64,000 nucleotides of DNA from an uncultured Verrucomicrobiae bacterium (GTDB lineage: Bacteria > Verrucomicrobiota > Verrucomicrobiia > Chthoniobacterales > UBA10450): the NCBI GenBank assembly GCA_963846775.1, contig CAWJXB010000006.1, positions 1,702,990 through 1,766,989 of the forward strand, given 5' to 3'. A program made the translations under genes and the position numbers. Below are positions 1,609 to 60,834 of this stretch, piece by piece; position 1 is the first letter of the stretch, and each line of letters starts with the position of its first letter. Below the pieces are notes generated by a model. The model was not told the origin of the DNA. It saw nothing but the letters and a program-made list of their open reading frames with translations, and ran no database searches.

Positions 1609-2781
1609 TTAACGTCCCGGCATCATCTCGAGCAAAACGCCTCTGAAATATTCCGTCTCGGGGATAGTCGGTAAAACCGGATGATCCAACGCTTGCTCGA
1701 AATGGCGTAATCTTCTGGCCGAGCGCCGAACATCGACCAGCGCGTCGGCAATGGTCTGCGAGAAGGCCGCATCGCTCACGTGATGTGAGCAGGAAAAAGT
1801 CGCGAGCAATCCGTCTTTCGACAGCAGCTTGAATGCGCGCACGTGTAACTCGCGATAGCCGCGCAAGGCATCGCGCAATCCGCTCTTGGTTTTCGTAAAC
1901 GATGGCGGATCAAGCACAATCAAATCGTATTGCGCTTCTGCTTTACCGGCATCGCGCAGAAACTGAAATACGTCCGCCTCGGTCCAGCGCACATTTGTTT
2001 TGTTACGCTCGGCGTTCCGTTTCGCCGCGGACAGATTATGGGAGCTTTCATCAACCGCCGTCACCTCCGCCGCGCTCGCGCGCGCGCAGATGAGCGCAAA
2101 CGCGCCTTGATTTGTGAAACAATCGAGCACGCGGCGGCCTTTCGCGTGTTGGGCCACGATCTCGTAATTTTGCCGTTGATCGAGATAGAAACCGGTCTTG
2201 TGTCCGCGCAGAAGATCGACCGCGAACTTTGCGCCGGCGATGTCGATCTCGATTAGCGCCGACGGCGCCGCGCTTGCCAAGACGCCAGTGCGCAATTCTA
2301 ATCCTTCGGCTTTTCGAATTGGCGCATCGTTGCGCTCGATGATTGTGACCTTCCCGAAAAGATCGACAATGGCCTCGGCGATCAAATTCTTCCGCAAATC
2401 CATTGCCAGGGTCAGCGTTTGTAAAACAAGATGATCGCCGTAACAATCGAGGACTACGCCGGGCAGACCGTCGCTCTCGCTCCAGACGATACGTCGCAAT
2501 TTAGGATCGACACCGCGCCGGTCGCGATACTCCGACGCCTGGGCAATCCGGCGCTTGAAAAAATCGAGATCGAGGTCCTGCTTTCGCCGCGAAAACCGGC
2601 GCGCCACGATCTGTGATTTCGAATTGTAAATCGCGCTTCCGATCAAATGATCGCGTCCGTCCTTGAGAGAAATCACATCGCCATCAGCCGGTTTGCCGAA
2701 AACTTTCAGCACCTCGCTGGAAAAAACCCAGTCGTGTCCGTGCAAAATTTGCGCGCGGGGTTTGACGACGAGTCCAGCCAT
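1609..2781 (-). CDS. rlmI: SAM-dependent 23S rRNA (cytosine-C5) methyltransferase, RlmI-like (PUA + class I MTase)
   Basis: N-terminal PUA-like region, central DPPSF and C-terminal class I MTase motifs, ~390 aa. Start set at the internal ATG (MAGLVVKP). Confidence 0.75.
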   Translation of the reverse strand: MAGLVVKPRAQILHGHDWVFSSEVLKVFGKPADGDVISLKDGRDHLIGSAIYNSKSQIVARRFSRRKQDLDLDFFKRRIAQASEYRDRRGVDPKLRRIVWSESDGLPGVVLDCYGDHLVLQTLTLAMDLRKNLIAEAIVDLFGKVTIIERNDAPIRKAEGLELRTGVLASAAPSALIEIDIAGAKFAVDLLRGHKTGFYLDQRQNYEIVAQHAKGRRVLDCFTNQGAFALICARASAAEVTAVDESSHNLSAAKRNAERNKTNVRWTEADVFQFLRDAGKAEAQYDLIVLDPPSFTKTKSGLRDALRGYRELHVRAFKLLSKDGLLATFSCSHHVSDAAFSQTIADALVDVRRSARRLRHFEQALDHPVLPTIPETEYFRGVLLEMMPGR

Positions 2782-2788
2782 ATTTAGA

Positions 2789-2850
2789 AAGTGAGAAGTG
2801 AGAAGTGAATGGTGAGAAGATAATCCCCAACCACGTCTCACTTCTCACTA
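2789..2850. repeat. tandem heptamer array (GTGAGAA x4) with inverted partner forming hairpin between divergent rlmI and purC starts
   Basis: gtgagaa gtgagaa gtgaatg gtgagaa ... tctcacttctcac; period 7, arms complementary. Confidence 0.7.
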
Positions 2851-2863
2851 ATCACAGCCGTTT

Positions 2864-3808
2864 ATGCAAACCTCGCCTCAAAGCTCAATCGATCTGACCG
2901 GAATCAAAAAACTGCGCAGCGGCAAGGTGCGCGAAGTTTTCGATCTCGGCGACACGCTTCTGTTCGTTGTGACCGACCGGCTTTCGGCGTTTGACGTGAT
3001 TTTATCCGACCCTATCCCGCACAAGGGCGCGGTGTTGAATCAGCTCTCCGCCTTCTGGTTCAAACGCTTCGGCAACTCCGACAGCCGTCGCGAGCAGGGC
3101 ATCGACAATCATTTTGTCACGGCAAACTTTGACGAATTTCCGGAGAATTTGCAGCCGTTCCGCGATCAACTTGCCGGACGTTCGATGATTGTCCGTAAAA
3201 CAAGACCGCTCCCGGTCGAATGTGTGGTGCGCGGTTATCTGGCCGGCTCCGGCTGGAAGGAATATCAGGAATCGCAAAGCGTATGCGGAATCAAATTGCC
3301 GGCGGGTTTGCAGCTCGCCTCGAAGTTACCGGAACCGATTTTCACGCCTGCGACCAAGGCCGAGGAAGGCCACGACGAAAACATCGACATGAAACGTTGC
3401 GCGCAGATTCTCGGCCCAAAAACGGCAGAGCAAGTGAAGAAGCTCAGTCTCGAGATTTACTCGCGCGGGCGGGATCACGCGGCGCAGCACGGGATCATCG
3501 TGGCCGATACGAAATTCGAATTCGGACAGATCGATCCGCCGCAGGACGGATCCGCCGTGGCGAACAATTGCTTGCTGTTGATTGACGAATGTCTTACGCC
3601 GGATTCGTCGCGGTTTTGGCCGGCTGATCAATATGTCGTCGGCCAAAGCCCGCCCAGTTTCGATAAACAATTTGTCCGCGACTATCTGGAAACGCTCGAT
3701 TGGGACAAAACCCCGCCCGCGCCGAAGTTGCCCGCCGACGTGATCGCGCGCACGGCAGCGAAGTATGTCGAAGCGTTCGAGCGATTGACTGGTGAGAGGT
3801 TAAGGTAG
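2864..3808 (+). CDS. purC: phosphoribosylaminoimidazole-succinocarboxamide (SAICAR) synthase
   Basis: Long-form PurC signatures (GKVREVFD, VVTDRLSAFDV, ADTKFEFG), 314 aa. Confidence 0.9.
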   Translation: MQTSPQSSIDLTGIKKLRSGKVREVFDLGDTLLFVVTDRLSAFDVILSDPIPHKGAVLNQLSAFWFKRFGNSDSRREQGIDNHFVTANFDEFPENLQPFRDQLAGRSMIVRKTRPLPVECVVRGYLAGSGWKEYQESQSVCGIKLPAGLQLASKLPEPIFTPATKAEEGHDENIDMKRCAQILGPKTAEQVKKLSLEIYSRGRDHAAQHGIIVADTKFEFGQIDPPQDGSAVANNCLLLIDECLTPDSSRFWPADQYVVGQSPPSFDKQFVRDYLETLDWDKTPPAPKLPADVIARTAAKYVEAFERLTGERLR

Positions 3809-3840
3809 GGCGCGCGGGCACTGCTTTTCCCAAGAACACG

Positions 3841-3866
3841 GCGACGGTCACAGACCGCCGCTACAG
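3841..3866. repeat. REP-like palindromic unit (forward), overlapping mdh stop
   Basis: gcgacggtcacagaccgccgCTAcag. The CTA is the reverse complement of the mdh TAG stop. Confidence 0.7.
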
Positions 3867-4841
3867 TAAGTCACTCACGAGCGATTTTTCTTCCTTCAAT
3901 TCGGCGACCGTCTTGTCGATCTTGTCGCGGCTGAATTCATTGATCGGGACACCTTGGACGATTTGCCATTTGCCGCCGTGGACGCGCACGGGAAACGATG
4001 AAATCAATCCTCGATCGACATGGTAACTTCCATCCGAACAAACGGCGACGCTATGCCAATCGTCACCGGCGGTGTCCTCCGTTAACGAGCGAACGCTGCC
4101 GATGACAGCGTTTGCGGCGGAAGCGGCCGAGGAAAGCCCGCGCGCTTTGATGACAGCAGCACCGCGTTGTTGCACCGTGGCGATGAAATCTTCCTTTAAC
4201 CATTTCTCGTCGCCGATGATCTCGCTGGCCGGGCGATTGTCGATCTTGGCGTTGTAAAAATCAGGATACTGGGTGGAGGAATGATTGCCCCAGATCGTCA
4301 TGTTCGTGACACGCGTAATCTGGACGCCGGCCTTGTGCGCAAGCTGAGCGCGGGACCGGTTTTCATCCAGTCGCGTCATGGCAAACCAGCGATCGGTCGG
4401 AATTTCCTTTGCGTTGTTCATCGCAATCAGGCAATTCGTGTTGCACGGATTTCCTATGACGAGAACGCGCACATCGGCGGCGGCATTCTTTTGCATCGCC
4501 TGCCCCTGGCCGATGAAAATTTTGCCGTTGATGCCGAGCAAATCTTTCCGTTCCATGCCGGCCTTGCGCGGGACGCTGCCGACGAGCAAGGCCCAGTTAA
4601 TGTCGCGAAAGCCTTCGTCGAGATCGGCTGTCGGCACGATCGAGTGGAGCAGCGGAAAGGCACAATCGTGCAGTTCCATTACCACGCCTTCGAGCGCACC
4701 AAGCGCGGGCGGGATTTCGACCAGATGGAGCGAGACGGGCTGGTCCTGGCCAAACATTTCGCCCGAAGCGATCCGGAAAACCAGCGCATAACCAATGTGA
4801 CCGGCCGCGCCGGTGACAGCGACTTTGATGGGTGACTTCAT
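3861..4841 (-). CDS. mdh: malate dehydrogenase (NAD), LDH2-family
   Basis: N-terminal Rossmann motif [12 protein letters not shown], catalytic region IWGNHS, 326 aa. Confidence 0.9.
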
Positions 4842-4884
4842 GATTCAATTAGCCACAGGGTCTGCCTTGGGCAATCCGGAAGGA

Positions 4885-5003
4885 TCAATGACGAATGTCG
4901 AATGTCTAATGACGAAGAAATGACGAAATCCAAATGACGAAAGTGATTCCTCGCTGCCTTTCGTCATTCATGAATTCGGATTTTCTTCGTCCATCGTCAT
5001 TAC
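4885..5003. repeat. tandem heptamer/octamer array (AATGACG-type) with inverted partner; long imperfect hairpin between malQ stop and mdh start
   Basis: aatgacg aatgtcg aatgtct aatgacg aag aaatgacg aaatcc aaatgacg aaag | ctttcgtcattcatgaattcggattttcttcgtccatcgtcatt. Confidence 0.7.
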
Positions 5004-6691
5004 GCGCGTCCCGTTTTCTCCAGCAACTTGCGAATCAGCGCCATTCGTTTTCGTTCCGCTCGGCTGGCGCGCAACTGCGCAATCGAGCGGTGCATTCGAC
5101 GCGTCCAATTCCCCGAAGCAGCGGTGCCGGGCACGTTGAAGCGATACTTGCACGCGAGCAGATCGGTGATCATGACCGAGGCGATCCACGATTCGCTCCG
5201 AAACAGCGCTTCCATGATCCGCGGATAAAAATCGCGGCTGTAATCGATCGATTCGCCCTTCGGCTGGAATCCGGCAAACTCGGCGATTTTGTTGAGAGCG
5301 TCGATGGATTGCTCCGATGTCGATGTGGGGTGCTCAATCGCCTCTTCCCACAACTTGCGTAACGGTTTGTGATCGTGCGTGGCGTAAGTCGCTACCGAGA
5401 CGCGATTGTATTCGCTCCCAGGGGTGACCCGGCCATGATACACTTCCCATTGCGGGATTTTGAATCCGGCGATTCCTAACGAGCGCAGACTGGGGCGGAC
5501 ATAATCGGGTACCGTCCCCAAATCTTCGCCAATTACCCGCGCGTCGCCCGACTCCTCCAGGACGGCGCGCAAATATTCTTCGCCTTCGCGCAAATTCGCG
5601 GCGCACTCTTCCGGATTGGAATCATTCCGCGGCGCAAAATGCGGGGCACGGCCGCCGGTCTTGGCCAACATCTCATTCCATTCCAGTGCCAGGAATTTTC
5701 GATTCTGCGATGGTCGCCACGGGAAAGCATAGATCCGATAAAAGCCGAGGACGTGATCGATCCGGAAAAGATGAAAAATGCGGCGGACAAAGCGGACCCG
5801 TTCCCGCCACCAATCGAAACGGCGCGTCCGCATCGCGTCCCAGCGATAAAGAGGGATGCCCCAGTTTTGTCCCCATTTTTGTGTAAACTTATCGTCTTTG
5901 AAGTATGGCTCCGGCGGCGCGCCGCCTGACCAGTCGAGCGCAAACTCGTCGTGCCGAGCAAAGACATCGGCGCTGTAGTAACTGATGCCGAACGGAATGT
6001 CGCCCATCAATGCCACACCGCGCTCTTCGGCGAACGCTTTGATCGCGCGCCACTGTTCGTGCGCGATCCATTGCACATAGCGAAAGAAATTCTCCCGCTT
6101 GGCAAATGCCGATTGTCGATCCAGCGGCAAATTGCATAACCACTCCCGCGCCGATCCCGGCGAGGGCGTCGGCCATCGGTCCCACGTTTCGTGCTCGCCA
6201 TTCTCTTCCATCAAGGCGCGGAACAGGGCGTAATGGTTCAGCCACGCCGCTTCTTTTTCACAAAATTTCCCGAAACTCGATTCGCGCTCAGCGCTCGCGT
6301 GGATGCAAAACCGGGCAAACGCGTTCTCCAACAACTGACGATTCAGTTTCCTGGTCTGCGGATATTTCACGGCCCCATGTCGAAGCGCCGCCAGATCGAA
6401 AGTCGTTAGGGTCGCAGAAAAGTCCTCCGCGCTCAAATCTTCCGGGCTGCCTGGCGCTAGATAAATCGTCGTTGGCTCGATCGCCATCGCACTAATGGCG
6501 TTGTAGGGACTGTTGTCACCTCCGATTTCATTGATCGGCAGAAGTTGCACCAGCTTGAACCCGGCGTCGGCTGCCCACTCGATGAATTGCCGCAGCGCCT
6601 CGGTGTCGCCGACTCCAAGATCGTCATCACGGCGCAACGCAAACAACGGCGCCAGAACACCGGCGATTTTCTTTTCGTGGGGGAGATCCAT
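5000..6691 (-). CDS. malQ: 4-alpha-glucanotransferase (amylomaltase, GH77)
   Basis: 563 aa with GH77 catalytic-region motifs (FRIDHVLGF, IGEDLG, ATHDH). Confidence 0.88.
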   Translation of the reverse strand: MDLPHEKKIAGVLAPLFALRRDDDLGVGDTEALRQFIEWAADAGFKLVQLLPINEIGGDNSPYNAISAMAIEPTTIYLAPGSPEDLSAEDFSATLTTFDLAALRHGAVKYPQTRKLNRQLLENAFARFCIHASAERESSFGKFCEKEAAWLNHYALFRALMEENGEHETWDRWPTPSPGSAREWLCNLPLDRQSAFAKRENFFRYVQWIAHEQWRAIKAFAEERGVALMGDIPFGISYYSADVFARHDEFALDWSGGAPPEPYFKDDKFTQKWGQNWGIPLYRWDAMRTRRFDWWRERVRFVRRIFHLFRIDHVLGFYRIYAFPWRPSQNRKFLALEWNEMLAKTGGRAPHFAPRNDSNPEECAANLREGEEYLRAVLEESGDARVIGEDLGTVPDYVRPSLRSLGIAGFKIPQWEVYHGRVTPGSEYNRVSVATYATHDHKPLRKLWEEAIEHPTSTSEQSIDALNKIAEFAGFQPKGESIDYSRDFYPRIMEALFRSESWIASVMITDLLACKYRFNVPGTAASGNWTRRMHRSIAQLRASRAERKRMALIRKLLEKTGRA

Positions 6692-6698
6692 TTGGGAA

Positions 6699-6788
6699 GG
6701 TGAGAAGTGATCAGTGATCCGCGATCCGTGAACAGTTTACGCAGCGTTGCTTCATGCTGATCACTGATCACCGATCACAACTCTATTT
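6699..6788. repeat. tandem heptamer array (GTGAnnn x5) with inverted partner; hairpin immediately upstream of malQ start
   Basis: gtgagaa gtgatca gtgatcc gcgatcc gtgaaca ... gatcactgatcaccgatcac. Confidence 0.7.
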
Positions 6789-8151
6789 CGACTCCTGGCG
6801 TAGGCACAATCACCTCCGCGTTAGGCAATTCTGCGCTCAACGTCGCGCGCATCCATTCCACCGCCGACACATCGCCGTGCACGAGCACGACTTTTTGCGG
6901 CGACACCTTCTTCGCGTACGCAATCAACGTCTCGCGCGAGGCGTGGGCGCTGAATTGGAACTGCTTCAAATTGCACCGGACGTGCTGGGGCGCTTCATCT
7001 GGATCGAGCTGAACTTCGCTCCCCGGCGCGGCATCGCGCAGCAATCCCGCCGGAGATTCCGGATCGGCGTAGCCGACAAAAAAGATCGACTGCTGCGGAT
7101 TCTCCACCAGGCGATGCGCGAAAATGTTTGAGAGCGTTTTGGGCGTCATCATTCCGCTGGAGAGCGCATAGACGCGGCCCGGACGCGGCGCCGCGTCGTG
7201 AATCGTTGCGCCATTCAACACGAACGGGGCCATATCATCCATCAACTGCAGACGCGGCAATTGCCTGCGGCTCATTCCGGCGCGGCGATCGTAAATCTTG
7301 GTCATCTTCGAGCTCAAACCTCCGATATAAATCGGAAAATCCCGCTGCAACTGGTCGCGCCTAAATTTGCCAAGCATAGCCAGAACTTCCTGCGTTTTGC
7401 CTAAGGCGAAGACCGGGATGAGCGCGCAGCCACCACCCTGGAAAGCGTCCTCGATCGCTGCGGCCAGAAGGCGTTCTTCGGCAGCGCGCGTCCAATCAGC
7501 CGGTTGAGCGTGATCGCCGCGGGTGCATTCCATGATCAGAATGTCGATCCCTTCGTCGGGAAAGACCGCCGCTTGCATGATCGTTTGATCGTCGAAGTTC
7601 ACATCGCCCGTGTAGAAAACCGTGCCACCTTCGCCGCGGAGCAGAATTCCAGTGGAACCGAGGACGTGACCAGCATCGTAGAGCTCGAAGGACAATGGGC
7701 CGGTCTCGTTCGGCGGGACGCGCTCGCCCGAAATCGAGAGGCGCTGCCGCATCGGACACGACTGCCAAAGATCTGACGCGCGATCGGTCTCACGATGGGT
7801 GAAGAGCGGATACAACATTGTGCCCAGCTCTTCGCGCTGGCGCATCATCACGTTGACGGAGTTATGCAGTAGCACATCGCCAATGTCGGCCGTGGCGTCG
7901 GTCATGAAGACGCGCGCACGCGGTTGCCGTCGCATCAGTACCGGTAACGTCCCGATGTGGTCCTGGTGCGCGTGCGAGATCAGGATCGCGTCAATTGGTC
8001 GATCCGCGATCGGTTTGAAATTTGGTAGCGCATCTTCGCCGACGTTTTTTGGGTGCATCCCGCAATCGAGTACGATCCGGTGCCCCGCGATTTCCAGATA
8101 ATATGAGTTCGCGCCGATCTCAGTGTGCCGCGTCAGATTGATGAATTTCAA
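6775..8151 (-). CDS. MBL-fold metallo-hydrolase, beta-CASP family (RNA-metabolising nuclease-like)
   Basis: HxHxDH metallo-beta-lactamase motif (SHAHQDHIG) plus a beta-CASP-like C-terminal region, 458 aa. Confidence 0.75.
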   Translation of the reverse strand: MKFINLTRHTEIGANSYYLEIAGHRIVLDCGMHPKNVGEDALPNFKPIADRPIDAILISHAHQDHIGTLPVLMRRQPRARVFMTDATADIGDVLLHNSVNVMMRQREELGTMLYPLFTHRETDRASDLWQSCPMRQRLSISGERVPPNETGPLSFELYDAGHVLGSTGILLRGEGGTVFYTGDVNFDDQTIMQAAVFPDEGIDILIMECTRGDHAQPADWTRAAEERLLAAAIEDAFQGGGCALIPVFALGKTQEVLAMLGKFRRDQLQRDFPIYIGGLSSKMTKIYDRRAGMSRRQLPRLQLMDDMAPFVLNGATIHDAAPRPGRVYALSSGMMTPKTLSNIFAHRLVENPQQSIFFVGYADPESPAGLLRDAAPGSEVQLDPDEAPQHVRCNLKQFQFSAHASRETLIAYAKKVSPQKVVLVHGDVSAVEWMRATLSAELPNAEVIVPTPGVEIEL

Positions 8152-8183
8152 GACGGCAAAGCGTTGCGGATACCCCTTGGAAT

Positions 8184-8250
8184 GTAGCGGCGGTCTGTGA
8201 CCGTCGCCATCTCTTGGAAAAAGTTTGCGACGCTCATAGAGCGCCGCTAC
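8184..8250. repeat. REP-like pair (inverted + forward unit with ~18-bp spacer)
   Basis: gtagcggcggtctgtgaccgtcgc ... tgcgacgctcatagagcgccgCTAca. The second unit supplies the dipeptidase stop codon. Confidence 0.7.
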
Positions 8251-9284
8251 AGGAGCTGTTCAAAGATTCGCATCCAGTTTCGGTACAAAATTTTCTCGAT
8301 TTGCTCGTCGGTGAAGCCGCGCTCGATCAATTTTCGCGTCAGATTGCGCGCCTGCGAATGGTTCGTGAGGTCCGGGATAAAATGCGCTTTCGTCAGTTTG
8401 GCCTCGACCTCTTCCGCCGCCTCCTTGGGCAATTGCTGAAACAGGTACTCGCAAAAATCCAAGCCGATGCCAACGCCGTCGATGCCAATGAGACCAATTA
8501 CGTGCTCGATATGATCGATGTAATGATCAATCGTGCTTCCCTCCTGGGTCGGACTGACCAGGATCGCGTTCACGCCGACCACGCCGCCGCGTTGGCCGAT
8601 CGCTTTGATCTGATCATCGCTGATGTTCCTTTCCATGTCGTAAAATTTGCGCGTGTTAGTGTGCGAAACGATCAACGGTTTTTCCGTGAGATCGACAATA
8701 TCGGCAAAGCCTTGCGGGTTGATATGGGCCAGATCGACAATGATGCCGAGCCGCTCGCATTCGCGCACGATTTCACGTCCGAATTCCGTAAGTCCATCGC
8801 GTGAGGAACCGCTGGGTTTGAAAACGCCGCCGCTGCCGGCGGCGTTGCGACGGGCATGGGTCAGCCCGATCACGCGCACGCCGAGCTCGAAAAAAACGCG
8901 CAGCAGATTCGGATCTTCGCCTAACGGCTCGACTCCTTCCATCGTGATCACGAGCGCGATTTTCCTCGCCGCGCGCGCCTGCCGGATTTCCTTATACGTT
9001 TTGCAGATGACGAACTGTGGCGCGCTTGCGACTTCGCTGTACAACTGTGCGACCTGCCCCAACCCAACGCGCAATCCCATTTCCGGCAAATAGCGATCGT
9101 CGATGTAAATGGCCGCGCCAATGAGAGCGATGTTTCCCGCTTCGAACTCAGGTAAATAATGCGCGGTTAATTGGCCGGGCCGGTTCCGTTTCTCGTACAA
9201 ATCGAACGGTAAATCGAAATGAAGATCGATCAGGCCGGGCGCGTGAAGACGATTTACGCGTTGTTCGATTGACTCGTTAGGCAT
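8247..9284 (-). CDS. membrane dipeptidase (peptidase M19 family)
   Basis: 345 aa; renal-dipeptidase-fold motifs (DLHFDLPFDL, HTNTR, GIDGVGIGLDF). Confidence 0.85.
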   Translation of the reverse strand: MPNESIEQRVNRLHAPGLIDLHFDLPFDLYEKRNRPGQLTAHYLPEFEAGNIALIGAAIYIDDRYLPEMGLRVGLGQVAQLYSEVASAPQFVICKTYKEIRQARAARKIALVITMEGVEPLGEDPNLLRVFFELGVRVIGLTHARRNAAGSGGVFKPSGSSRDGLTEFGREIVRECERLGIIVDLAHINPQGFADIVDLTEKPLIVSHTNTRKFYDMERNISDDQIKAIGQRGGVVGVNAILVSPTQEGSTIDHYIDHIEHVIGLIGIDGVGIGLDFCEYLFQQLPKEAAEEVEAKLTKAHFIPDLTNHSQARNLTRKLIERGFTDEQIEKILYRNWMRIFEQLL

Positions 9285-31539: not shown

Positions 31540-31595
31540 TTCGCGTCAATTTTAACGTTCAACCTGAACGCTCAACGTCCAATGCTCAAAAAAAG
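31540..31595. repeat. degenerate tandem repeat (CGYTCAA-N-AA, period ~13) in convergent intergenic region
   Basis: cgtcaattttaa cgttcaacctgaa cgctcaacgtccaa tgctcaaaaaaa. Confidence 0.4.
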
Positions 31596-32393: not shown

Positions 32394-32516
32394 GGCTTAT
32401 CCTCCTGTAGTTGAGGAAAGTCAGACACGAATTGCACAAATTGTCACGAATCTTCGGCGGGTGACCCGCTGGAACCAGTCGTCCGGATTCGTGAAATCCG
32501 TGGCACGCCGAGCGAC

Positions 32517-42261: not shown

Positions 42262-42380
42262 CCACGAATCAACACGAATTGAGAGTTTCAAGCATTTCCC
42301 GGGAAGCTTTCAGCTTCCCCATCGGGAGCTATCTTCCATTCGCGTTGATTGGTGTCCATTAGTCATTAATTCAGCGCGAC

Positions 42381-52598: not shown

Positions 52599-52674
52599 GT
52601 AGCGGCGCGTCTATGACCGTCGCCATCTCTCAGCCCTCCAGTTTGCGACGGTCGCAGACTGCCGCTACAATCGC
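52599..52674. repeat. REP-like pair inserted in 5' leader of the PMT-like TPR gene
   Basis: gtagcggcgcgtctatgaccgtcgcc - 20-bp spacer - tgcgacggtcgcagactgccgctacaatcgc. Confidence 0.7.
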
Positions 52675-56692: not shown

Positions 56693-56725
56693 TTGCGACG
56701 GTCACAGACCGCCGCTACAATCGCC
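56693..56725. repeat. REP-like palindromic unit (forward)
   Basis: tgcgacggtcacagaccgccgctacaatcgcc; identical core to the 3841 copy. Confidence 0.7.
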
Positions 56726-59197: not shown

Positions 59198-60232
59198 ATG
59201 ACAAAAGAGCGCCACGAATTCGCCAGCGATAATACTGCCCCGATTTGTCCCGAAGTCTGGGATGCCCTGGCAAAAGCAAACCGCGCCGCCGCCGCGTCCT
59301 ATGGTGAAGACGAATGGAGTGCGCGACTACACGAACGTGTCCGCGACCTGTTCGAAGCCGATTGCGAGAGCTTTCTTGTCTTTAACGGCACGGCTGCGAA
59401 TGCGCTGGCGCTGGCGCAGCTTTGCCAGCCGTTTCACAGCATCGTTTGTCACGAACGCGCCCACATTGAAACCGACGAGTGCGGCGCGCCGGAATTTTTC
59501 TCCGGCTCTAAACTGCTGGTCGCGCGTGGCGATCACGGTAAAATCGACATTGGCGAGGCGCAATCGGTCATTGGTCGCCAGCCGGAACTACACGCGCAGA
59601 AGCCGCGGGTCATCAGTCTGGCGCAAGCGACAGAGTTGGGCACAGTTTACCAACGGCACGAGATTCGCGCGCTGAGCGAATTGGCCCTTGAACGGTCGCT
59701 CTTCATCCACATGGATGGCGCACGCTTCGCCAATGCCGTGGCGTCGCTTGACTGCGCCCCGAAAGAAATCTCGTGGCAGTCCGGGGTCGATGTTCTCTGT
59801 TTCGGCGGCACCAAAAACGGGCTCGCTGCGGGGGAGCTGGTTGTGTTTTTTAAGAAGGAATTGGCGCGCGAATTCGATTACCGGATCAAACAAGCCGGGC
59901 AGCTCGGTTCGAAAATGCGGTTTCTGGCTGCGGGCTGGCTTGCGCTTCTCGAAAACGATCTTTGGCTGCGCAATGCCGAACAGGCCAATGCGGCCGCGCG
60001 CCGGCTGGCGGAAAAGCTCCGCGGGCTAACGAACATTAGCATTTTGTTTCCGGTGGAAGCGAACGCGATTTTTGTTCGTTTGGAAGAGCGAATCGCACAC
60101 GCGCTGCAAGCAGCCGGCTGGCATTTCTACAGGTTTATTGAGCCTGATGTTTATCGCTTCATGTGTTCGTGGGCGACCAGCGAGCGCGCCACTGAAGATC
60201 TTGTCGCGGAAGTAAAACGTGCGTGGAAGTGA
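59198..60232 (+). CDS. ltaE: low-specificity L-threonine aldolase
   Basis: Beta-eliminating lyase fold with PLP-Lys region (GGTKNG), 344 aa from the internal ATG (MTKERHEFASDN). Confidence 0.85.
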   Translation: MTKERHEFASDNTAPICPEVWDALAKANRAAAASYGEDEWSARLHERVRDLFEADCESFLVFNGTAANALALAQLCQPFHSIVCHERAHIETDECGAPEFFSGSKLLVARGDHGKIDIGEAQSVIGRQPELHAQKPRVISLAQATELGTVYQRHEIRALSELALERSLFIHMDGARFANAVASLDCAPKEISWQSGVDVLCFGGTKNGLAAGELVVFFKKELAREFDYRIKQAGQLGSKMRFLAAGWLALLENDLWLRNAEQANAAARRLAEKLRGLTNISILFPVEANAIFVRLEERIAHALQAAGWHFYRFIEPDVYRFMCSWATSERATEDLVAEVKRAWK

Positions 60233-60282
60233 TGAACCGCCTAAAAATTGCGCCCGGCGCGCGAAGTCGTATAAAGCACGCA

Positions 60283-60834
60283 ATGCCGCATCACGCGCAA
60301 TCGTTTTTGTTGCTTAACCTGTCGATCCTGACAGGAACCGCGTTGGGTGGGTGCAGCGTCGCTCACGATGCTGCCTCCGTGACGTATCACGCTGCATCCG
60401 CAACGTACCATGCTGCATCCACAACGTATCATGCTGCATCCACAACGTACCACGCGGTCACTGTGCCGGTGCGAATCATTAGGCGGAACGTTGCCCATCG
60501 ACTGCCTCCCGACGCTCATGGGGAAAACACGACCACGAGCGTCGTGACCGAAACGGCCCCGACAACTCCGGATTCTTCGATCGCGACGACGCCTGCAACG
60601 CCCCGGAAGTCCGCCCCCCCGCAAAAGGCCGCGGTCTTCTCGAAGGCTAAAGCTTCGCCAACTCCAGGTGCCGTGCCGCGTGTGCAATTTCCAATCGCCG
60701 AGCGGGTTCCCGGCAAATCCGGATTGGTGATGAGCCCGTTCGATCCGGAAGCAAGATATGTCGACGTCAGCGGTTACGCCTCCGGCAGTAAAGTGAAGGA
60801 TCCGTGGACGGAGAAGATTTTCATTGTGCCGTAG
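60283..60834 (+). CDS. lipoprotein with four tandem (V/A/T)TYHAAS heptapeptide repeats and Thr/Pro-rich linker
   Basis: Signal peptide with lipobox-like LGGC. Repeats encoded by four 21-bp tandem units (60380-60463). Confidence 0.5.
   Translation: MPHHAQSFLLLNLSILTGTALGGCSVAHDAASVTYHAASATYHAASTTYHAASTTYHAVTVPVRIIRRNVAHRLPPDAHGENTTTSVVTETAPTTPDSSIATTPATPRKSAPPQKAAVFSKAKASPTPGAVPRVQFPIAERVPGKSGLVMSPFDPEARYVDVSGYASGSKVKDPWTEKIFIVP
60380..60463 (+). repeat. 4 x 21-bp in-frame tandem repeat inside lipoprotein gene
   Basis: gtgacgtatcacgctgcatcc / gcaacgtaccatgctgcatcc / acaacgtatcatgctgcatcc / acaacgtaccacgcggtcact. Confidence 0.8.

Follow-up and report, generated by a model that had tools for sequence, protein, structure and literature searches.

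A heptamer palindrome bridging a metallo-beta-lactamase stop codon and the malQ start codon in Chthoniobacterales is probably one copy of a labile class of junction elements

Although heptamer repeats beside start codons, such as the STRR and TAACTGA repeats, were described decades ago, no function has been demonstrated for them. Direct repeats of the TAACTGA heptamer are found in marine Beggiatoaceae, some Cyanobacteria and Bacteroidetes, where they are mostly intergenic and oriented 'forward' to the start codon, the largest class ending 1 nt upstream of it (MacGregor, 2015; PMC4679880). Only about 10% of the TAACTGA-bearing spacers contain a canonical ribosome binding site (RBS), 14 repeat sets overlap the end of the upstream open reading frame (ORF), the forward orientation has stop codons in all frames, and close relatives often possess shorter, repeat-free spacers in place of the repeats (PMC4679880). 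TCACTGA is given as a one-base variant of the unit (Table 3 of PMC4679880), only one inverted set is reported in the Maribeggiatoa genome, and S1, cold-shock proteins or CsrA have been proposed as candidate readers (PMC4679880). Among the long simple-sequence repeats of prokaryotes, those with heptanucleotide units are the most frequent, possibly as a product of polymerase slippage (cited in PMC4679880). The cyanobacterial 7-bp STRR repeats form hairpins between hupS and hupL, for which roles in transcript stability or translational coupling have been suggested (PMC2670836). A search of the literature on repeats in Verrucomicrobia or Udaeobacter found nothing relevant.

The element considered here lies in a stretch of DNA of 64 kb, which is all that was analysed of this genome, is hereafter called the window and is placed by its flanking genes in the Chthoniobacterales. 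It occupies the junction between a gene for a metallo-beta-lactamase family protein (MBL) and malQ, for which an exact-protein look-up returned no record. The junction is composed of the following features.

5000 to 6691, minus strand: malQ, 4-alpha-glucanotransferase of family GH77, the downstream gene, with its ATG at 6691
6775 to 8151, minus strand: metallo-beta-lactamase / beta-CASP / RMMBL protein (MBL), the upstream gene
6700 to 6778: the malQ-upstream hairpin (E3), two inverted arrays of a heptamer with a TGATCA core
6759 to 6778, minus strand: 5' arm of E3, in gene sense GTGATCG GTGATCA GTGATC, with TGA in all three frames
6727 to 6758, minus strand: loop of 32 nt, AGCAUGAAGCAACGCUGCGUAAACUGUUCACG
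6707 to 6726, minus strand: 3' arm GATCGC G GATCACTGATCAC, which pairs with the 5' arm
6700 to 6706, minus strand: last heptamer TTCTCAC (GTGAGAA on the plus strand), unpaired in the RNA optimum
6692 to 6699, minus strand: G-free spacer of 8 nt, CTTCCCAA, from the last heptamer to the malQ ATG, without a Shine-Dalgarno (SD) motif

The element takes up the whole 83-nt spacer between MBL and malQ, which in the sense of the genes reads TTG TGA TCGGTGATCAGTGATC, the 32-nt loop, GATCGCGGATCACTGATCAC TTCTCAC CTTCCCAA ATG. The heptamers of the GTGAnnn type and their complement are exactly where a preliminary description of this DNA had located them, with GTGAGAA GTGATCA GTGATCC GCGATCC GTGAACA on the plus strand at 6700-6734 and GATCACTGATCACCGATCAC at 6759-6778. 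As that description also had it, E3 adjoins the malQ start, the ATG following 8 nt beyond the last heptamer and 15 nt beyond the last paired unit, and the distal arm overlaps the end of the upstream gene, the MBL stop TGA at 6777-6775 being the TGA inside the first heptamer. E3 thereby supplies the stop codon of the upstream gene. Read in the TCA phase, the sense 3' arm (TCGCGGA TCACTGA TCACTTC TCACCTT) is composed of TCACTGA-type units aimed at the malQ start, with one exact TCACTGA and the others degenerate, and the 5' arm is the complement of a TCACTGA-type unit, three times.

The malQ-upstream hairpin is real and non-random. In the 64-kb window, GTGANNNGTGANNNGTGA with at most one mismatch is matched 8 times versus 0.13 expected, all 8 matches being located within E3 or the rlmI/purC element listed below, and GTGATCNGTGATC is matched 4 times versus 0.34 expected. 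Folded as RNA, the spacer (taken as 89 nt) reaches -32.5 kcal/mol with a z of -3.4, 1 of 200 shuffled sequences being equally good, and forms a stem of 19 bp (13 bp plus 6 bp) that includes two G-U pairs; folded as DNA, it reaches -19.2 kcal/mol with a z of -3.5. Sense and antisense strands are equal in folding energy, and the arms pair in two registers 7 nt apart. Six GATC sites lie within 80 bp at a spacing of 7 bp.

The 20 nt that precede the malQ ATG contain none of the 4-mers of AAGGAGGTGA, which agrees with the earlier characterization of the leader as lacking an SD sequence. The same leader had been described as fully paired, which does not hold, as the AUG and the preceding 15 nt (UUCUCACCUUCCCAA) are free in the RNA minimum-energy structure and the register shifted by 7 nt, favoured by DNA parameters, additionally pairs only the UCAC of UUCUCAC. 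The proposal of a pyrimidine-rich leader facing a purine arm applies in its first half, the 15-nt tail being the only pyrimidine-rich portion of E3, but not in its second, with 13 purines in 22 and 10 in 20 positions of the two arms. An Rfam scan of window positions 2000-9000 at E<=1 gave no match to E3, the hairpins yielding chance microRNA-like matches only, and nothing was called at E3 by a promoter/terminator scan.

Two incidental features of the hairpin may be mentioned. A 14-codon mini-ORF, ATGAAGCAACGCTGCGTAAACTGTTCACGGATCGCGGATCACTGA, on the minus strand at 6711-6755, begins in the loop and is closed by a TGA of the 3' arm that lies 19 nt upstream of the malQ ATG; it is probably due to chance. 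The conserved 3' tail of 16S rRNA is GAUCACC, to which the GGTGATC in the 5' arm is complementary and which the 3' arm and tail of E3 resemble; as there is no rRNA gene in the window and the sister families are without this feature, the match may be coincidental.

E3 is the third heptamer-array hairpin of the window, as had been noted before, which in total contains three such hairpins and one single array, each built from a different unit. These, and the copies of a further repeat family, are as follows.

2789 to 2855, strand not assigned: E1, GTGAGAA/GTGATTA heptamer hairpin in the divergent rlmI/purC spacer
4887 to 5002, minus strand: E2, AATGACG/TTCGTCA heptamer hairpin from the malQ stop toward mdh
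31553 to 31590, plus strand: single-arm AACGTTC/AACGCTC heptamer array in a convergent spacer
3841-3864, 8184-8207, 8227-8250, 52645-52668 and 56695-56718: copies of the REP-like sequence GTAGCGGCGGTCTGTGACCGTCGC

E1, with a fold z of about -7, lies 8-9 nt from both start codons, the rlmI ATG at 2781 on the minus strand and the purC ATG at 2864 on the plus strand, and indeed shares the GTGAGAA word with E3. E2 contains the malQ stop codon TAA (5002-5000) within its first unit and belongs to the same family as the malQ-upstream element of 28 related genomes, and the AACGTTC/AACGCTC unit of the single array also builds a hairpin in the purC/rlmI spacer of four related loci (L008, L013, L026 and L045). 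A second copy of the GTGATC type was sought without success both in the window (64 kb) and in 90 bacterial loci, which gives no sign that this particular unit is dispersed within its own genome. Candidate -10/-35 promoter elements in the arms and loops (GATAAT in the E1 loop, TAAACT in the E3 loop) were rejected on account of poor spacings and the lack of scan support.

The REP-like family GTAGCGGCGGTCTGTGACCGTCGC, which consists of a GTAG head and a palindrome, has 5 copies in the window versus 0.01 expected. Two of them form an inverted doublet at 8184-8250, and both mdh (3863-3861) and the gene for an M19 dipeptidase (8249-8247) have as their stop codon the TAG within a GTAG head. The ATCYGTG/CACGAAT type is represented, as isolated units or in short inverted form, at 4842-4870 in the mdh leader, at 32440-32516 and at 42262-42380; one example is CCTGTGGCTAATTGAATC, which immediately precedes the mdh ATG. 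In many relatives the word GTGGCTAA is found repeatedly ahead of start codons, at distances that vary; a leaderless promoter as the reason for this recurrence was rejected, since the distance to the ATG ranges between 0 and 12 nt. Within a predicted ORF on the plus strand (60223-60834), positions 60368-60455 comprise 3.5 copies of the 21-nt tandem repeat ACGTACCACGCTGCATCCACA with 88% matches, which on translation would give a 7-residue repeat in the protein.

The malQ-upstream junction was compared among the 80 loci obtained in a scan with malQ, all from Chthoniobacterales or Udaeobacter-like Verrucomicrobiota and with at most 75% amino-acid identity. An AATGACG/TTCGTCA heptamer hairpin of about 115 nt is present in 28 of them, starting at the stop codon of an upstream helicase-like gene and ending with its 3' array 5-10 nt before the malQ ATG. 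About 32 loci of the 80 carry instead an ATCYGTG palindrome with sub-repeats of period 10-11, some of which enclose a GxxExxY-like ORF, while another long palindromic repeat occupies the junction in 12, a TTGTGTG type in 3, and a bare spacer of 11-12 nt with an SD-like AGGGA/AGGA in a further 3. The 3' arm of E3 stands in the place of the SD-like spacer of these element-free relatives, and SD-like 4-mers precede malQ in 1 of the 28 heptamer-bearing loci versus 17 of the 52 others.

The occupant of this junction is evolutionarily labile. On a neighbour-joining tree of malQ the classes of junction elements are interleaved, very close relatives included, and in one pair (L007 and L012) homology ends at the upstream stop codon and restarts at the malQ ATG. 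The sole relative with MBL-malQ adjacency, a single close relative from the metagenome scan (L081) with an MBL protein 92% identical, possesses in place of the hairpin a spacer of 216 nt (929-1144) that contains an ATCTGTG element and a decayed ORF, the remnant of a GxxExxY element; its similarity to the window ends precisely at the MBL stop and returns at the malQ ATG.

Within the AATGACG elements the arms are 88-93% conserved as compared with 63% for loop and spacer, at a malQ protein identity of only 65-70%, conservation being highest in the start-proximal arm (0.93). This observation points to constraint on the arms, concerted evolution or recent spread. The folding bias between strands is weak in this family (mean -1.9 kcal/mol, 17 versus 9), which together with the equal strand energies of E3 gives no support to selection at the RNA level. 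RNAalifold gave no consensus structure for 18 AATGACG elements because of gaps and register ambiguity.

At the malQ junction, a hot spot for such elements, they also nest in one another: in L041 (3930-3990) the AATGACG hairpin is interrupted by a GC-rich palindrome, and in L074 (3860-3960) a long palindromic repeat replaces its 5' arm. A compact element with a GxxExxY-like ORF between the inverted ends TTAGCCACAGAT and ATCTGTGGCTAA, each end with three sub-repeats of period 10-11, is found in L012 (2890-3345) and many other malQ loci, and ORF-less versions occupy the spacers on both sides of malQ, upstream of it and toward mdh, in numerous genomes. The two look like a pair of autonomous element and MITE, the ORF being flanked by inverted arrays of CACAGAT.

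Other orthologous junctions are occupied in a similar way. The divergent purC/rlmI spacer measures 14-21 nt in 14 of 21 loci and contains an AACGCTC/GCGTTGA heptamer hairpin in 4 of the 21, and in L056 a GTGATTA-GTGAGAT-GTGAGAG hairpin orthologous to E1. E1 and its orthologue both fold (-34 and -36 kcal/mol, respectively), with one unit position changed from A-U to U-A, a single example of a compensatory exchange. Both hairpins leave about 8 nt on each side of the spacer; as the flanks of E1 (8 and 9 nt) sum to the basal length, E1 resembles an insertion into the middle of a basal spacer, which would explain the constant distance of 8 nt from the ATG without invoking function. With the divergent purC and rlmI starts only 14-21 nt apart in most relatives (for example L006, 7894-7911), either both promoters are located inside the neighbouring coding sequences or the mRNAs are almost leaderless.

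The malQ-mdh spacer shows a mixture of CACAGAT palindromes, GTAG-headed REPs and the AATGACG hairpin, the latter in five loci and the window. At this junction AGTTGAG units form a hairpin in L073 and a lone array in L026, and L065 has a basal spacer of 24 nt. Altogether, hairpins in the related loci are built from AATGACG, AACGCTC, AGTTGAG and TTGGACG units and single arrays from ATCGAGC and AACATCA units. All 28 heptamer arrays with an inverted partner are intergenic in the related loci; arrays first flagged as coding were artefacts of over-extended ORF starts, as verified at the junctions. The AATGACG element has an identical orientation relative to transcription at three different junctions.

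Members of the class are also present in viral sequences. Three successive GTGATCN units (GTGATCNGTGATCNGTGATC) are found in 99 stretches of IMG/VR and three successive CGTCATT units in 33, whereby many contigs are near-duplicates, so that the GTGATC cases are not independent. An inverted partner accompanies 41 of 126 viral GTGATC arrays, invariably with the GTGATC arm first, followed by GATCAC, and never reversed; the hairpin is placed between a stop and a start codon in 23 of 43 cases, in a divergent spacer in 4 and in a convergent spacer in 3. Some viral hairpins combine GTGATCA, TAATCAG and TAACTGA units, a mixture that ties the unit of the window to the TAACTGA group. Arrays without inverted partner are oriented forward versus reverse in 28 versus 15 of 85 cases, a modest bias.

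One contig, IMGVR_UViG_3300049183_000013 (L105), carries seven copies of CCACYGATCACYGATCACYGATCACCCGGCACTT in the same orientation at gene junctions and with conserved flanks. In 4 of the 7 the upstream ORF ends at a TGA within the array and the next ATG follows 13-75 nt on, and one leader, GATCACTTCCCCAAAAC, is similar to the malQ leader GATCACTTCTCACCTTCCCAA. Together with the conservation of the AATGACG arms, these multi-copy forward arrays suggest more function than a neutral insertion needs. At three junctions of this contig (7366-7423, 8556-8601 and 12290-12340) a second heptamer array, the AACTGAA-like CTGAAAACTGAACACTGAAAAC, close to TAACTGA, separates the GATCAC array from the start codon that follows.

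Cumulatively, with a probability that we put at about 60%, E3 is one copy of a labile class of heptamer palindromes at stop-to-start junctions, similar to STRR and TAACTGA repeats, and not a conserved malQ-specific riboregulator. The class would colonise stop-to-start junctions both in the Chthoniobacterales (Verrucomicrobiota) and in certain phage contigs, and E3 would have arisen in the MBL-malQ spacer by insertion or expansion and be evolutionarily labile there. Replication slippage may account for the heptamer periodicity and for changes in copy number, while the inverted arrangement may be maintained by selection on pairing or by correction of one arm by the other. As to marks of mobility, E3 shows no target-site duplication (flanks GAGTT and CTTCCCAA), no terminal inverted repeat apart from the arrays themselves, and no transposase was identified.

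With respect to expression, MBL and malQ are probably co-transcribed, as only 8 nt extend from the hairpin to the ATG and leave no room for a promoter. Folding of the stem-loop in the common transcript would shorten the distance from the MBL stop to the malQ AUG, with only a short leader, unstructured and free of G, remaining ahead of the AUG, and malQ translation could be initiated without an SD sequence by coupling or re-initiation after termination at MBL. Alternatively, an RNA-binding protein with an OB fold, similar to S1 or Csp, might recognise the forward heptamer array, in line with the proposal made for TAACTGA. In either case the effect of E3 would be constitutive and not condition-sensing.

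A more far-reaching version of the latter possibility, in which the forward array is a protein-read, SD-independent signal for initiation or coupling in host and phage (S1, a cold-shock protein or similar) and the inverted arm serves to sequester it, is tentative and on balance unlikely. It is retained mainly on account of the seven same-orientation junction copies with conserved flanks in one phage contig and of the conservation of the AATGACG arms, above all of the start-proximal one; the scarcity of SD sequences in heptamer-bearing malQ loci, the similarity of the malQ and phage leaders and the forward bias and rare RBS of the published TAACTGA repeats are also in its favour. On the other hand, presence and absence of the array vary among close relatives, in other loci a plain SD spacer or an unrelated element serves at this junction, and the orientation bias of viral direct-only arrays is modest. 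Furthermore, the units differ widely (GTGATCA, AATGACG, GTGAGAA, AACGCTC, AGTTGAG), which is hard to reconcile with a single sequence-specific binder, and to our knowledge no protein that binds heptamer arrays has been described.

It is rather improbable that the heptamer palindromes constitute a mobile 'junction cassette' which inserts precisely from stop to start codon, provides stop codons in all frames of both strands and an SD-substituting forward array, and is common to Verrucomicrobia and phages. If it were so, gene punctuation would derive in part from a spreading element read by a heptamer-binding factor.

That E3 acts as a factor-independent terminator or as a 3'-end stabiliser of the MBL transcript is very unlikely. 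A stable stem-loop does begin at the MBL stop codon, T-runs such as TTTTCTTC or TTTTTTTG follow the AATGACG relatives, and REP-type hairpins stabilise upstream mRNA in E. coli. E3 is, however, followed by TTCTCACCTTCCC and not by a T-run, and instead of the short GC-rich stem, the loop of 3-8 nt and the U-run of intrinsic terminators it combines an atypical 19-bp stem and 32-nt loop with the tail UUCUCACC, at which the scan made no call. In addition, E1 is located between two divergent start codons where no gene ends, and termination at E3 would leave malQ without room for a promoter.

A role at the DNA level, whereby the GATC cluster or a cruciform would be used in binding, methylation, recombination or replication, is highly improbable: the regularly spaced GATC sites, the DNA fold and the folding without strand asymmetry are compatible with it, but the sister families AATGACG, GTGAGAA and AACGCTC are without GATC, the 7-bp spacing places successive sites on different faces of the helix, and no methylase or binding protein is in evidence. 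Hardly credible is finally a dedicated malQ riboregulator, the RNA thermometer or carbon-responsive leader of the preliminary description, as, despite the position of the hairpin next to a start codon without SD, positions -15 to -1 and the AUG which it should mask are unpaired, its stability of about -32 kcal/mol is far above that of known RNA thermometers, which like ROSE and fourU are weak hairpins occluding the SD or AUG, Rfam holds no match, the element is not kept in the closest relative (L081) or across the 80 loci, and similar elements are located at unrelated junctions. The earlier reading as a whole is partly supported.

The preferred reading of E3 as one copy of a labile class extends the phenomenon of start-proximal heptamer repeats to abundant soil Chthoniobacterales, the group which includes Udaeobacter, and to phage contigs. 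In these the arrays are often hairpins that bridge stop and start codon exactly, and one junction is repeatedly re-occupied by different palindromes. The malQ, mdh and purC/rlmI junctions with and without an element provide a comparative system in which SD replacement, coupling and tolerated parasites could be told apart, and the value lies more in this system than in the single malQ hairpin. For annotation, it follows as a warning that such hairpins are not each a gene-specific riboregulator or terminator.

Compared with the described systems, E3 resembles the TAACTGA repeats in its intergenic arrays of 7-nt units, though with a single exact TCACTGA among degenerate ones, which are oriented forward, end near the start codon without a canonical RBS, overlap the end of the upstream ORF and contain stops in all frames, and in the short repeat-free spacer of relatives; the scarcity of SD sequences in the heptamer-bearing malQ loci matches the TAACTGA pattern as well. 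Unlike TAACTGA repeats, the arrays of the window class are short (3-4 units), degenerate and paired with an inverted copy to form a hairpin, their unit varies by locus, and the host is a verrucomicrobium. With STRR, E3 has in common the intergenic, hairpin-capable 7-bp tandem unit between co-directional genes, whereas unit sequences and phylum differ from those of heterocystous cyanobacteria and STRR families are highly multi-copy within a genome.

An intercistronic stem-loop for coupling or differential mRNA stability is exemplified by the malE-malF REP of E. coli, and E3 is likewise a stable hairpin that separates the stop of the upstream cistron from the start of the downstream one, but, unlike such stem-loops, is not conserved at its junction. 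In common with REPs, BIMEs and MITEs, the E3 class comprises small intergenic palindromes with presence/absence polymorphism, shared junction hot spots and stop-codon overlap. Unlike REPs, in which a GTAG head precedes an imperfect palindrome of 20-40 nt and which come in many near-identical copies, E3 has no GTAG head, no RAYT or transposase partner was identified and its arms consist of tandem heptamers; nevertheless, the GTAG-headed REP of the same window supplies TAG stop codons to its neighbouring genes just as E3 supplies the TGA of MBL.
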